Shown here: positions 54,531 to 58,979 of the stretch, piece by piece | How the letters are laid out: every line of letters begins with the position of its first letter | How positions within the stretch are numbered: the stretch's first letter is position 1 | NCBI GenBank assembly: GCA_965232515.1 | Contig: CBDDPY010000002.1 | Location: forward strand, 4,320,001 to 4,384,000 | Length of the DNA stretch: 64,000 bases | Direction: 5' to 3' | DNA from: Alphaproteobacteria bacterium | GTDB lineage: Bacteria; Pseudomonadota; Alphaproteobacteria; GCA-2731375 | Translations under genes and position numbers: made by a program | The notes under the pieces: model-generated | Seen by the model: only the letters and a program-made list of their open reading frames with translations | Databases searched by the model: none | Told to the model about the DNA's origin: nothing

Positions 54531-55176
54531 GCGATACCTCCGTTAGTCGCAACAAAACACCCGAGGAATCCGTCAGGCTGGGCTGGCGCTCGGCGCGCAT
54601 ATTCCAATATTTTGCGGCTTCGGTCAATTCTAACTCCATATCTTGTCCCTTCGGGAACAAAGCCACGGAGTCCGAATTCAGGAACGGGGCCGCCAATTCC
54701 AACAATTTCGGCAGCGGCGCCAGCGCCCGCGCGGTGACGACGGCGGCCGGAAACGGAGCCACGTTTTCGATCCGCGCGGTATGCAACGTGACATTCGTCG
54801 TGGTGATTCGCGCCGCCTCGCGCAGAAAGGCCGCCTTCCGGGTATCGCTTTCCACCAGGTGCATGTCTCGCGCACCCATGATCGCCAGGACCAAACCGGG
54901 GAACCCGGCGCCGCTGCCAAGATCGAGCCACGGTCCGGTGTCAGCCGGTGCCAGCGGCAACAGCTGGGCGGAATCGTACATATGCCGGCGCCACAGGTCC
55001 GGCAACGTCGTCCGGCTTACCAGGTTGATCGCCCGCTGCCACTTCCGTAGCAGATCGGCGTAGGCCGCCAGGCGGTCCAGTGTTTCACGTGAAACACCCG
55101 TCGCGTCCTGGAAAGCCTGGGCGTCGAACGTCGACAATCGATCAGGCGACGCGGCGCCGGTCCGCACGGCGGACAT
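54523..55176 (-). CDS. rsmG: 16S rRNA m7G527 methyltransferase
   Basis: [26 protein letters not shown]; start uncertain (overlaps the mnmG end). Confidence 0.95.
55081..55096. promoter_or_regulatory. parS site within rsmG
   Basis: TGTTTCACGTGAAACA, exact consensus. Confidence 0.95.
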
Positions 55177-57007
55177 GGCCGAGCAGCGCGGTCAGCGCGG
55201 CCGCCGTCACGCCGGGAATGCGGGCCGCCGCCCCCAACGTTGCCGGCCCGTGCCGGCGGAGCTTCTCGCGCACCTCGTTCGACAGCGAACCGACCGCGTC
55301 GTAGTCGATGTCGGCCGGAATGGCCAACGCCTCGTCCTTGCGGAACGCGGCGATGTCGGCCGCCTGACGATCAAGGTAGGCATGATAGCGGGCATCGATT
55401 TCGAGCTGTTCGGCGACATCCGCCCGGACCGCGCCCAGCTCCGGCCAGATCGCCGTCAGCCGCGCGACCGAGACGTCCTCATAGGCCAGCAGCTCGCGCG
55501 CCGTGCGCCGGCGGCCATCGAGATTAACCATAATTTCATGGCGGCGGGCCTGATTTGGCGTCAGCTTTCGGTCCGTCAGGATTTCCCGCGCCGCGTCCAG
55601 CCGCGCCATCTTGTCGACGAAATGCGCGGCGCGCCGTTGCCCGATGGCGCCGATCGACAAGCCTTTCGGGGTTAGCCGCTGGTCGGCATTGTCGGCTCGC
55701 AGCAGCAACCGGTACTCCGCCCGCGAGGTGAACATGCGGTACGGCTCGGTGGTGCCGCGGGTGACCAGGTCGTCGATCATCACGCCGATATAGGCATCGG
55801 CCCGGTCGAGGACGAGCGGAGCGGCATCGCCGGCGGCCAGCGCCGCGTTCAGACCGGCCATCAAGCCCTGGGCCGCCGCCTCCTCGTAGCCGGTGGTGCC
55901 GTTGATCTGGCCGGCAAGATAAAGCCCGGCGACGCGGCGGGTCTCGAGGCTGGGCCAGAGCTCGCGCGAGTCGACGCAATCGTATTCGATAGCGTAGCCC
56001 GGCCGGCGCATGACCGCCCGCTCCAGGCCGGGGATCGCCTTCAGCATTTCGAGCTGCACCTCGCGCGGCAGCGAGGTGGAAATGCCGTTGGGATAGATGG
56101 TGTCGTCGTCCAGGCCCTCGGGCTCGAGAAAGATCTGATGCCGGTCGCGCTCGCCGAAGCGGACGACCTTGTCCTCGATCGACGGACAGTAGCGCGGACC
56201 GGTGCTGTCGATCTGACCGGAATAGATCGGCGCGCGATGCAGGTTGGCCCGGATCAGATCGTGCGCGGCTGGCGTGGTCGTGGTGATATGGCAGAACACC
56301 TGTGGCGTGGCGATGCGTTCGGTCATGAACGAGAACGGCACGGGATTGACGTCACCCGGCTGCAGGTCCAGGCCGGCCCAATCGATGGTCCGCCCGTCGA
56401 GCCGCGGCGGCGTGCCGGTCTTCAGCCGGCCCATTTCGAAATCCAGACCGTAGAGCGTGTCCGACAGGCCGATCGCCGGCGCGTCGCCGACCCGGCCGGC
56501 CGGCCGCTGTTCCTCGCCGATATGGATCAGGCCGCGCAGAAAGGTGCCGGTGGTGAGCACCACCGCGCCGGCGGAAATCACGTCACCATCGGCGGTGACC
56601 ACGCCCGTGACGCGGCCGTCGGTCAGCCGAAGATCCTCGACGGCGGCGGCGCGCACCTCGAGGTTGGGCGTATTCAGCATCTCCCGCTGCATGGCCTGTC
56701 GGTAAAGCTTGCGGTCGGCCTGGGCGCGAGGGCCGCGCACCGCCGGGCCCTTACTGCGGTTCAAGAGACGAAACTGGATACCGGCGGCGTCCGCGACCCG
56801 GCCCATGACGCCATCGAGCGCATCGATCTCGCGGACCAGATGCCCCTTGCCGAGCCCGCCGATGGCAGGATTGCAGGACATCTCGCCAATGGTCTCGATC
56901 TTGTGGGTCAGCAACAGCGTGCGCGCGCCCACACGCGCCGCCGCCGCCGCCGCCTCGCAGCCGGCGTGCCCGCCCCCAATGACAATGACATCGTACCTAG
57001 CCCGCAT
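55142..57007 (-). CDS. mnmG: tRNA uridine-5-carboxymethylaminomethyl synthesis enzyme MnmG (GidA)
   Basis: [53 protein letters not shown]; the current ATG lies inside the MITE terminal repeat. Confidence 0.97.
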
Positions 57008-57263
57008 TTCTCACCCCCATCACGGTCTGCGTCGTGCACAGGCGTTCGACCTGCCAGGAGCGGGCCGAAAAGCGTAGCGGGGACTACGGTTGAGGCCTGC
57101 GACGCCGCGGGCGGGCGCCTGCGCGCGACCCTTCGGGCGGCGCCGTGCTGCCGACAGGGGGCGTCGCGCCGCTTGCCCGATGCCCCACATCGCGCCGCGC
57201 AGCGCTCCTGCCCTGTCGGCAGCACAGCGCCGCGCAGACCATGATGGGGGTGAGAAATGGGGG
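57001..57263. mobile_element. 263-bp MITE-like element with ~30-bp terminal inverted repeats and CTAG/CTCG flanks
   Basis: cccgcatttctcacccccatcacggtctgcg (57001-57031) versus cgcagaccatgatgggggtgagaaatggggg (57233-57263); internal stems 57031-57044/57116-57129 and 57139-57159/57211-57231. Confidence 0.85.
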
Positions 57264-57271
57264 CTCGCCAT
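57020..57271 (-). other. 83-codon upstream ORF running from the inferred ancestral mnmG start through the MITE
   Basis: ATG 57271, in frame with mnmG; TGA at 57022-57020, 12 nt before ATG 57007. Confidence 0.6.
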
Positions 57272-57278
57272 GGCGCGG

Positions 57279-57307
57279 AATTTAGGGTCCCAGATGGTGC
57301 CTGTCAA
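57279..57307 (-). promoter_or_regulatory. Sigma-70 promoter of mnmG-rsmG-parA-parB with leaderless geometry
   Basis: TTGACA-N17-TAAATT, then 7 nt to ATG 57271. Confidence 0.8.
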
Positions 57308-57322
57308 AGCCGACCGCAAGCG

Positions 57323-57338
57323 TGTTTCACGTGAAACA
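57323..57338. promoter_or_regulatory. parS site between mnmE and mnmG
   Basis: TGTTTCACGTGAAACA, exact consensus. Confidence 0.95.
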
Positions 57339-57358
57339 TCTCGTTAAGCTTCGGCCGC

Positions 57359-58693
57359 TTATTTGCCGATACAGAAGTCGGCAAAGACCACATCCAGGAT
57401 GTCTTCCACGTCGACCCGGCCGGTGATCCGGCCCAAAGACCGGGCAGCCAGACGCAGATCCTCCGCGACCAATTCGGGAGCATCTGCCCCGAGCGACCGC
57501 TCGAGCGCCGCCCGGCACTCCTCGAGCGCGGCCCGATGCCGCGCCCGGGTCAGCATCGGCGCGCCGCCGGCATCGAGTCGATCTGCGACCATGTTTCCGA
57601 GCGCCGATAGAAACGCCGTCATCCCCGACCCGGTCTTGACGGAGATCGGCAAGGCGGGATGTCCAGCCACCGCGACCGTCCCGGCGGCCGGCGCCAGGTC
57701 GACCTTGTTCAGCGCCACCAGGGAATTGGCATCGATCAATTCCGCGATCTCAGTTCCGCCAGCATCGGCGGCCGTCGCGTCGGCCAGGACGATCTTCAGA
57801 TCCGCCTGCGCCGCCCGCGCCAACGCCCGCCGCACCCCCTCGCCTTCGATATCGTCGGCGGCCCGACGCAAACCGGCCGTATCGGCCAGCAAGACCGGGT
57901 AACCGCCGATATCGAGATACACCTCGATCACGTCGCGTGTCGTCCCGGCCGTGGTCGAGACGATGGCCGCGTCGCGCCGGGCGAGCGCATTCAGCAGGCT
58001 CGACTTGCCGGCGTTCGGCGGGCCGACGATCACCACATAAAGGCCATCGCGCAAACGCTCACCGCGATGACCGTCATCGAGATGGGTGGCGATCCGATCG
58101 CGCAGCTCGACGACACGTGGACGCACGGTCGCCGCCAGTTCGTCGGGCAGATCCTCATCGGGAAAATCGATGTCAGCTTCGGCGTGGGCTAAGAGCGAAA
58201 TCAGGTCGGCTCGCCAGGTCTCGTAGAGATTGCCCAGCGCACCCGACATCTGCCGCAACGCCTGCCGACGCTGGGCCGCCGTTTCGGCCGCCACCAGATC
58301 CGCGAGACCCTCGGCTTCGGTCAGATCCAGCCGCCCGTTCAGGAAGCCCCGCTTGGTGAATTCGCCGGGCTCGGCCGGCCGGACGCCGGGCCGGGCGATC
58401 AGCGCGTCGGCGAGCGCGGCGGTGACAGCCCGGCCACCATGGACCTGGAACTCGACAATATCCTCGCCAGTAAAGCTATTGGGCCCAGGAAACCAGATCA
58501 CCAGCCCCCGATCGATGACATCGCCGTCCGGTCCCCGCAGTGTTCGCAGCACGGCGGACCGCGGCGGAGGAACGTCAGAGCCGGTCAGATCGGCCGCTGT
58601 ATCCGCCGCGCCCGGACCGGAAACGCGGATCACGGCCACGCCCGCTTGGCCCGGCGCCGTCGCCGGCGCGAAGATTGTATCGGCGTCGGCCAT
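57359..58693 (-). CDS. mnmE: tRNA modification GTPase MnmE (TrmE)
   Basis: DTIFAPAT, SFTGED, GPPNAGKSS, GTTRD, DTAG, NKVD, C-terminal FCIGK. Confidence 0.97.
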   Translation of the reverse strand: MADADTIFAPATAPGQAGVAVIRVSGPGAADTAADLTGSDVPPPRSAVLRTLRGPDGDVIDRGLVIWFPGPNSFTGEDIVEFQVHGGRAVTAALADALIARPGVRPAEPGEFTKRGFLNGRLDLTEAEGLADLVAAETAAQRRQALRQMSGALGNLYETWRADLISLLAHAEADIDFPDEDLPDELAATVRPRVVELRDRIATHLDDGHRGERLRDGLYVVIVGPPNAGKSSLLNALARRDAAIVSTTAGTTRDVIEVYLDIGGYPVLLADTAGLRRAADDIEGEGVRRALARAAQADLKIVLADATAADAGGTEIAELIDANSLVALNKVDLAPAAGTVAVAGHPALPISVKTGSGMTAFLSALGNMVADRLDAGGAPMLTRARHRAALEECRAALERSLGADAPELVAEDLRLAARSLGRITGRVDVEDILDVVFADFCIGK

Positions 58694-58718
58694 CGGCGCG
58701 GATCGTCGACAGGCGAAT

Positions 58719-58979
58719 CTAGTCGACGGGCTTGTCGGTTTTCCCGCCCGTCCCGCCCATGGCGACGGACCAGAACATTTTCTGCATGGCGTCCAGTCCC
58801 TGCATGCCCGCCGGCAACCAGGTCCGGAACAGGGTCTCGGCATCGGCCGCGGACAACGCCTGTTCCATACGTTCCTTGATGCCGGCCATCATGGCCTCCT
58901 GCAGGGGCGTCACGTCCGGGAGACCGAGGAACGCGCGGGCCTCCTCGGGCGTGCAGTCAATATCGATCGTGATTTTCAT
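58719..58979 (-). CDS. DUF6489 family protein
   Basis: [23 protein letters not shown]. Confidence 0.8.

Follow-up and report, generated by a model that had tools for sequence, protein, structure and literature searches.

The 64,000-nt stretch analysed here (the window), from the alphaproteobacterial assembly GCA_965232515.1 (7.39 Mb, 96% complete; G000 below), contains the gene mnmG with a 265-bp mobile element lodged between its second and third codons. On the evidence of its inverted repeats, dispersed copies, target duplication, empty sites and same-ended autonomous partners, this element is a transposable element of the miniature type with inverted repeats (MITE). An insertion equipped with a built-in restart is well supported by comparison: the original start codon now opens an upstream open reading frame (uORF) which ends within the promoter-distal repeat, shortly before a Shine-Dalgarno (SD)-like motif and an ATG belonging to the repeat and lying in the mnmG frame. 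MnmG is probably made now from this ATG, at 57007, as M-R-A-R-Y-D-V and not as M-A-R-Y-D-V. The whole explanation, in which an IS1380-type MITE has entered the start region of mnmG, translation restarts at the repeat-borne ATG and the proposed route is re-initiation after the uORF, appears to us probable, with somewhat less assurance. Coordinates are positions in the window (Table 1), unless another contig or locus is named.

Insertion of the element in mnmG

G000 contains 14 near-full-length copies of the 267-nt unit, which share 89-100% identity and all have different flanks. Further copies were found in G001 (same genus; 81% complete, fragmented), in G002, and in G004, G010 and G013, which form genus g4 (G004 being of the same family as G000). 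The 33-nt inverted arms are kept in 33 of the 33 copies aligned; in the mnmG copy they are 94% complementary and separated by 201 nt. The mnmG site itself is empty in G001, where the flanks are adjacent and TTGACA-N17-TACATT is followed, after 7 nt, by ATG GAT CGC TAC GAT GTC (M-D-R-Y-D-V). None of 19 relatives has the element in its mnmG 5' region, and in the contig of a relative about 94% identical (X1, an RNA library) position 56995 is joined to 57269 via six other letters, giving ATG CAG CGA TAC GAT. All five copies tested have an empty counterpart in G001, namely those at mnmG, at the glyoxalase-like, OYE-like and ABC ATPase genes, and in the region upstream of aroQ. Both mnmG junctions are reproduced without difference in X5 contigs, which possibly represent the source sample of the genome and serve as a check of the assembly, not as independent support. 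The X1 and X2 RNA-library contigs which cover parts of the element stem from other copies or from relatives.

When the element and one flank copy are removed, ATG GCT/G AGG TAC GAT is obtained, which reads M-A-R-Y-D-V. The pre-insertion sequence was ATG GC-TA-GG TAC (M-A-R-Y), with a CTAG site at the point of insertion. An insertion in codons 2-3 of mnmG, removal of which would restore a normal N-terminus of the protein, had been proposed in an initial annotation of this DNA. It is borne out by the 14 copies yielded by a search with the repeat, by the empty site in G001 and in the ~94%-identical relative, and by the promoter and start conserved in relatives.

The limits of the element required correction. 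Among the 14 copies, the flanks follow one pattern: Y-TA beside G-CCCGC... at one end, and ...GCGGG-C beside TA-R at the other. The base adjoining CCC varies among variant copies in an inverted and not in a direct manner, which assigns it to the element. The terminal inverted repeats were described properly at the outset, whereas the extent of 57001-57263 has to be widened to 57000-57264. The 4-bp duplication (CTAG/CTCG) assumed with it is exact in 5 of 14 copies, against 10 of 14 in which a 2-bp TA is exact on both sides, both as read from the flanks; the target duplication is probably TA within YTAR. Members of the IS1380 family, to which we assign the element below, usually make a duplication of 4-5 bp; such a length agrees less well with these flanks than TA does (5 of 14 copies, against 10), and full insertion sequence (IS) copies are flanked by CTAG, compatible with both a 2-bp and a 4-bp duplication. 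At mnmG, the T>G change in the promoter-side flank is silent with respect to the old reading frame (GCT to GCG).

Some incomplete forms accompany the full copies. An internally deleted derivative of about 112 bp lies at 5950383-5950494 of the G000 contig C2, and three lone termini, mismatched at 0-1 of 15 nt, occur at C2:1542615, 3389324 and 5933988. Many G001 contigs (loci L052-L074) break off within the element.

A proposed restart cassette in the terminal repeat

Read from the old start, the uORF frame is open until the TGA at 57022-57020, 21 nt before the end of the element, and the sequence then continues TGG GGG TGA GAA ATG. The distance from this stop to the new ATG is 12 nt, and the ATG, in the frame of mnmG, stands 8 nt from the gene-side end of the element. 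This confirms on the sequence what had been claimed initially, that the old start reads 83 codons and stops in the distal repeat before an SD-like motif and an in-frame ATG. In the list of ORFs, this frame is entered from an upstream TTG, as 57020..57319 (99 aa). With the 3' end of the G000 16S rRNA (...GGATCACCTCCTTTCT), the predicted SD/anti-SD duplex amounts to -14.3 kcal/mol at mnmG, -13.3 at the OYE copy and -7.3 at the ABC copy.

Within the terminus, two of the frames contain stops, and a TAG or TAA is formed in addition with the target. As had been noted at first, the other repeat also has this ATG, facing outward at 57257-57259 of the plus strand, where it opens 25 codons only; on a reading of the sequence, the cassette of stop, SD-like motif and ATG restores the frame in either orientation. 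The choice of starts for MnmG is narrow. An earlier one is barred because the uORF stop TGA lies in frame, and no later one gives a complete protein because GIDA begins at residue 6, at profile position 1 (residues 6-392 correspond to positions 1-387, E 1.2e-169; both C-terminal domains are also matched). The protein would contain three residues encoded by the element (M-R-A), and the in-frame TGA blocks read-through.

The proposed rescue at other genes

Four of the 14 G000 copies lie within the first ten or fewer codons of conserved genes, all in the same orientation and all with the repeat ATG in frame (4/4); in the genome as a whole, 24 of 28 ends possess this ATG. In mnmG the insertion falls at codon 2/3, behind an SD-less ATG. 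The remaining three genes encode a Glyoxalase_3 protein (locus L004; codon 3; old ATG with GGGAGG; new N-terminus M-R-A-R-G-I-D-H-L), an Oxidored_FMN (OYE-type) protein (L005; codon 9/10; old ATG with GGGAG; M-W-A-N-L-F-S) and a LivF-like ABC ATPase (L014; codon 4/5; old GTG overlapping the upstream stop; M-Q-A-D-P-I-L-N-V). GIDA, Glyoxalase_3 and Oxidored_FMN begin at residue 5-6 of the ORFs opened by the repeat ATG, at profile position 1-2, and the new N-terminus of the ABC ATPase aligns residue by residue with V-S-D-P-D-P-I-L-N-V of G001. All four sites are empty in G001, and the original N-termini are visible there. No insertion in a gene body was found among the 14 copies, as judged from GC3-filtered open frames. 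The test suggested in the initial annotation, whether copies are placed near gene starts with the ATG in frame, thus turns out favourably for it, with these four, all empty in G001, and none in a gene body. Two more copies also have the ATG in frame, but the native starts (LysE, AroQ) are kept downstream of them, and the remaining ones are intergenic or on stop codons, often via the target TAG.

Coding sequence is depleted of YTAR sites but not free of them (0.285 per kb, compared with 1.33 for the whole genome), and 44% of the coding ones are in the rescuing phase (NNT|ANN). The position of the copies within genes is a stronger argument than their frame, because gene-killing insertions, if tolerated, would scatter along 230-640 codons and not over the first ten.

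A case from another phylum supports this reading. In an Acidobacteriota metagenome-assembled genome (MAG; L159), a 284-bp MITE with the same termini and an unrelated interior sits after GTG AGC AT-TA of a sigma-54 response regulator gene, the old GTG being just upstream. The ATG of its terminus yields M-R-A-S-R-I-L-V-V-D-D-D, with the receiver domain from residue 6, so that L159 would be an independent instance of the same rescue. In each of the five cases the old start has survived together with its signals. Three copies have the stop of the old frame 12 nt ahead of the new ATG and the ABC copy has it 5 nt ahead; in the MAG the two overlap, the old frame ending 8 nt past the A of this ATG. 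That MnmG starts at 57007 is suggested because the rescuing geometry is the sole surviving type of intragenic insertion in G000 and recurs in another phylum.

Several copies in G000 coincide exactly with stop codons (C2:472076-472341, 4850266-4850531, 6117524-6117789 and 2551274-2551541), where the TAG consists of the target TA and the first G of the element. One minus-strand ORF extends about 17 codons into such a copy, as a C-terminal fusion.

Relation of the element to IS1380

The 17-nt terminus (TAGCCCGCATTTCTCAC), when searched for in one genome per species, was found without mismatch in more than 106 stretches (among them L136-L241) across many phyla, with the sequence diverging directly after it. 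Among the matches listed are Acidobacteriota, Planctomycetota, Verrucomicrobiota, Gamma- and Alphaproteobacteria, and a Calothrix. At locus L181 two of these termini, in inverted orientation and at a distance of 1,754 bp, enclose a 475-aa ORF which scores 389 bits with the IS1380 transposase model NF033539 (cut-off 180) and 539 bits with PF13701 (DDE_Tnp_1_4). G004 has a 1,692-bp IS (L247:1372-3063) with a 455-aa PF13701 transposase and CTA-GCCCGGATTTCTCAAACCC at both ends; its loci L247 and L255 carry GCCCGGATTTCTCAA at both ends, and the ends of the G004 IS match end variants among the G000 MITE copies. Because the same termini bracket IS1380 transposases in other genomes, the element is, by its ends, a MITE of an IS1380 clade and not of IS5. 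IS1380 transposases have been used as a prokaryotic outgroup of piggyBac (PMC10813416).

The attribution to IS5 in the initial annotation had been based on the YTAR preference, which is indeed seen, but the transposase found between such ends is of IS1380 (an NCBIfam equivalog). A transposase with the same ends, which that annotation suggested looking for, exists in other genomes (L181 and G004) and not in G000: no IS1380 transposase (PF13701) above the cut-off is present in this genome (96% complete), nor in G001 (81% complete). The G000 copies are probably stranded and now immobile, since the matching transposase is absent.

Two other parents were considered and rejected. IS5 is disfavoured by the IS1380 transposases between the termini and by the fit of a 4-bp repeat to 5 of 14 copies. 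An IS630/Tc1-mariner parent was suggested by the TA flanks; there is no DDE_3 domain in G000, none of 20 DDE_3 loci taken from relatives has both ends, and the IS1380 partners settled the matter against it. The locus L112 (G036) was also dismissed as an IS630-type partner, its left end matching and its right end not. At L112:814-2135, an IS630-like element with split ORFs (896-1402 and 1453-2073) lies beside a single MITE-type terminus with 1 mismatch in 17; most likely an IS entered here next to a solitary terminus.

The autonomous IS1380 elements (1,754 bp at L181, 1,692 bp in G004) share with the mnmG element the same or nearly the same 15-17-nt inverted termini and the (C)TA(G) flanks. In contrast to them, the mnmG element has 265 bp and no transposase, and its interior consists of two conserved hairpins instead of coding sequence. 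The base preceding the terminus was counted in 90 matches (L136-L215), of which 57 have C, 27 have T, 5 have G and 1 has A.

A conserved fold and a shared core

The nested stems ascribed to the interior from the start are supported by folding: the minimum free energy (MFE) of the leader is -201.9 kcal/mol, with z = -10.35 relative to 200 shuffled sequences. When 33 full copies are aligned (14 from G000, 1 from G001, 18 from genus g4), which fall into two groups 71-77% identical to one another, they give a three-helix fold made of the repeat stem and two inner hairpins. It comprises 95 pairs, of which 43 are changed on both sides, compared with 5-11 such double changes when the partners are slid. 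Paired cells amount to 97.8%, against 86.2 +/- 0.4% in 500 shuffles and 32-43% with slid partners. As many as six types of pair occur in columns 16-22 of the stem formed by the repeats, which indicates several independent events, and the length of the element is held at 266-271 nt. G-U pairs exceed A-C pairs (95 vs 38), a weak sign of a fold acting on one strand at the RNA level, largely inherited. Candidates for what keeps the fold are the single-stranded form of the DNA in transposition, RNA, and binding by a protein.

The tip of the first inner hairpin is a 57-nt core, 88-95% conserved across genera. It is also present in a second MITE of 268 bp (L086:1448-1715, G010), which has distinct 34-nt ends (CTAGAGCACGGTCC...) and the same three-helix layout. 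A conserved three-helix fold and a 57-nt core found in MITEs with different ends may point to a function of the interior. In G000 the core occurs solely in the 14 copies and at one diverged site (C2:6783500). Apart from a 22-bit match to a plant miRNA model, taken as chance, no Rfam family was found for the element at E <= 1. Besides L086, the core of the second MITE was seen at L087 and L094 (G004).

How the new start might be reached

We propose that transcription would still start at the old mnmG promoter, and that a ribosome would load on the 5'-terminal AUG at 57271 before the distal arm is transcribed. In the course of translating the 83-codon uORF, it would melt the 33-bp stem and keep it open. 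Termination would then occur 12 nt upstream of 57007, beside a strong SD, and the same or a fresh ribosome could initiate there. In the predicted MFE fold, the promoter-side arm pairs with the whole of the new SD and AUG, and the uORF ends near them, a geometry which matches termination-reinitiation coupling. Unmasking of a buried SD/AUG coupled to translation of the uORF is therefore a plausible model by that geometry; whether MnmG synthesis would actually depend on the uORF is a closer question, and we lean very slightly towards doubting it. To regard the element as an acquired regulatory leader is speculation.

Several observations weigh against the interpretation as a whole. The new SD/AUG is predicted, in the MFE fold, to be buried in a very stable stem, and this stem begins 5 nt past the old ATG, where it could hinder leaderless initiation. 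Read-through from mnmE would make the SD-less old AUG internal. The insertion is absent from the closest relatives, and so may be a recent and harmless hit; mnmG may be dispensable. The frame by itself is a weak argument, 0.44^4 being about 0.04. An ATG is present at 10 of 30 G001 ends, 20 of 30 reading AGG, and no 5' rescue was found among these 30 ends (assessed by ORF length and GC3 only, not by Pfam). It is present at 17 of 44 ends in G004, G010 and G013, and there, by ORF length and GC3 and not Pfam, no convincing gene is opened at any of the 44. Across phyla, long ORFs in the ATG frame occur at 16 of 114 ends, no excess over the remaining two frames with 25 and 4 of 114. The AGG ends of G001 represent a subfamily difference, which coincides with the absent 5' rescues, and within the element family AGG, GTC and ATA are the variants that replace ATG. 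The terminus sequence yields the cassette as a by-product, which selection exploits in individual cases and which is not kept in every copy.

The new ATG might also be used independently of the uORF, if the transcript started in the element, if the stem were cut by an RNase III-like enzyme, or if standby ribosomes gained access to it. We consider this less likely, yet deserving attention. A near-perfect stem of 33 bp is a plausible substrate for a double-strand RNase, and RNase III regulation via NEMIS/Correia hairpins is described in the review by Delihas 2008 (PMC2229807). Moreover, a G004 copy lies 3 and 12 nt upstream of divergent starts, which would imply transcription from or through the element, and the RNA-library contig of the relative spans the 3' end of mnmE into mnmG, so that read-through transcripts without a 5'-terminal AUG may exist. 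However, the consensus scan found no sigma-70-like site within the element, and in five of five cases the old start and its signals are kept and the uORF ends between -12 and +11 nt of the new ATG. With an irrelevant uORF this would be coincidental, though it may just follow the repeat sequence. A quite improbable alternative is that the insertion inactivated mnmG, leaving a recent, undecayed pseudogene in which the in-frame ATG is coincidental. The insertion may indeed be young, as it is absent in G001 and the ~94%-identical relative; the prior for the rescuing phase is as high as 44%, and the SD/AUG is predicted to be sequestered. Such a coincidence would nevertheless have to be reconciled with four of four intragenic copies in the first ten or fewer codons and in the rescuing phase, none being elsewhere in genes, and with the same rescue in another phylum. 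Over its 621 aa the mnmG ORF shows no interruption and its domains are matched in full, and the copies differ by 5-11% from one another, arguing against a very recent burst.

That the element is removed from RNA or DNA, by splicing or precise excision, and the original M-A-R-Y... protein is still made, we find extremely improbable. It is true that the element is highly structured, with conserved structure, and that its deletion together with one TA restores the frame. Yet the Rfam search returned no intron, the ends are those of a transposon with an IS1380 partner, and no matching transposase is encoded in G000; the X5 contigs show filled junctions and no joint, the sole joint coming from a diverged relative.

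The restart at 57007 could be placed in a wider frame, in which the nearly invariant 17-nt termini of a pan-bacterial IS1380 clade are a portable restart cassette that allows silent landing at gene starts and, at mnmG, creates a translation-gated switch from the paired ends and the stranded old start in the mRNA. In this full form the idea is an unlikely one. Both ends would offer the same set of signals, namely stops in two frames, the SD-like GGTGA and an ATG facing outward, so that insertions in the first codons even of important genes would be near-silent and the 5' ends of genes would act as safe landing sites. Expression of mnmG, and perhaps of rsmG-parA-parB too, would then depend on initiation at the leaderless uORF.

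Known systems and significance

Donation of a start by a repeat has precedents. In Neisseria REP2 and in upstream inverted repeats of Borrelia, a ribosome-binding site (RBS) and an ATG are provided to the adjacent ORF (PMC3184786); these units also contain a promoter and a 5' untranslated region and lie upstream of genes. The mnmG element differs from REP2 in having an RBS and ATG with no promoter-like site inside (consensus scan), and from both in being a transposon with terminal inverted repeats, placed within the first codons and replacing the native start. Small palindromic mobile elements which conserved protein genes tolerate, since their frame is preserved, are represented by Rickettsia RPE and by BOX, BRE and ERIC/YPAL (PMC2229807 and PMC3184786); RPE is translated within the host protein, whereas the mnmG element stops the old frame and restarts. 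Correia/NEMIS elements of Neisseria resemble it in their TA termini, in the long stem formed by the terminal repeats in the transcript and in effects on the expression of neighbouring genes, and long, stable stem-loops are familiar from the transcripts of bacterial MITEs (both PMC2229807). The Correia/NEMIS elements differ in size (about 107-155 bp) and ends; a link to IS1380 is not known for them, nor has donation of a start codon been reported. Systems of termination-reinitiation likewise have an upstream ORF ending a few nucleotides from a base-paired SD and AUG; at mnmG, this arrangement was made in one step by a transposon and its function is inferred. The mnmG case is set apart in that the donor is the terminal repeat of an IS1380-clade MITE, that the insertion is inside the first codons with the old start left as a uORF ending at the new SD/AUG, and that the same solution is found at four genes within one genome and again in a second phylum. 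In the literature searched there was no report of the 17-nt terminus or of start donation by IS1380 or a MITE, though the supplementary tables of Delihas may list start-site fusions.

If the repeat ATG is used, mnmG would provide a clean natural example of a transposon which brings along a start site and so mends the harm done by inserting itself. This would explain the persistence of a mobile element at the head of the conserved mnmG-rsmG-parA-parB operon, and would define a one-step route to a long structured leader with a uORF. Annotation of start codons near such elements needs care, in view of four proteins with element-derived N-termini (M-R-A, M-W-A, M-Q-A). The effect could be widespread, with the 17-nt terminus in more than 106 stretches and at least one Acidobacteriota case.

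Gene order, promoter and neighbouring features

On the minus strand the order is mnmE, a gap of 351 bp, mnmG, rsmG, parA and parB, each gene being identified by Pfam.

Table 1. Features of the mnmG start region and of the inserted element (window positions)
Feature	Position	Strand	Remarks
mnmE	57359-58843	-	longest ORF
Promoter-like TTGACA-N17-TAAATT	57279..57307	-	7 nt from end of -10 hexamer to old ATG
Original mnmG start codon, now uORF start	57269..57271	-	ATG without SD
uORF	57020..57271	-	83 sense codons + TGA, from old start through element
Promoter-side flank copy, degenerate	57265..57266	.	TC on plus strand, GA on minus strand; TA expected
Promoter-proximal terminal inverted repeat arm	57233..57265	.	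outward SD-like motif + ATG 57257-57259 (plus strand)
MITE proper	57000..57264	-	265 bp, non-coding, IS1380-family derived (by its ends)
Conserved core	57157..57213	-	57 nt, tip of first inner hairpin
Promoter-distal terminal inverted repeat arm	56999..57031	.	uORF stop + SD-like motif + new mnmG ATG
SD-like motif GGGGGTGA	57011..57018	-	3 nt before new ATG; GGGGG core, then 6 nt
Gene-side flank copy TA	56998..56999	.	target ...GC-TA-GG... = CTAG
mnmG as now readable	55142..57007	-	621 aa, begins M-R-A-R-Y-D-V

The promoter described initially, 7 nt before the ATG at 57271, was recovered by the consensus scan: it is the sole promoter-like site in 56900-57450, matches the consensus at 10 of 12 positions, and shuffles gave 0.0 +/- 0.1 such sites. 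With the -10 hexamer about 7 nt before the ATG and no SD, the old mnmG start is, by its sequence, of leaderless geometry. The layout TTGAC-N16-19-(-10)-N6-7-ATG is kept in 10 of 19 relatives, G001 included, as found with a regular expression.

The longest ORF of mnmE has 494 aa, yet its TrmE_N domain begins only at residue 56; the true start is probably about 50 codons downstream of that of the longest ORF. Between the mnmE stop and the mnmG promoter, at 57323-57338, there is a perfect 16-nt palindrome, TGTTTCACGTGAAACA; by a count made by eye, 14 of 19 relatives have its core, TTTCACGTGAAAC, in the 120 nt upstream of mnmG. The palindrome resembles a parS site, which fits the parA and parB genes downstream. 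In G004, a GTC-variant copy of the element without the ATG (L089:1501-1768) lies between the divergent genes mentioned above, whose ATGs are 3 nt and 12 nt away; because these ATGs adjoin its ends, the promoters of both genes must lie in or beyond the element. One of the two genes begins M-C-G-R-Y and is SRAP/YedK-like by eye.

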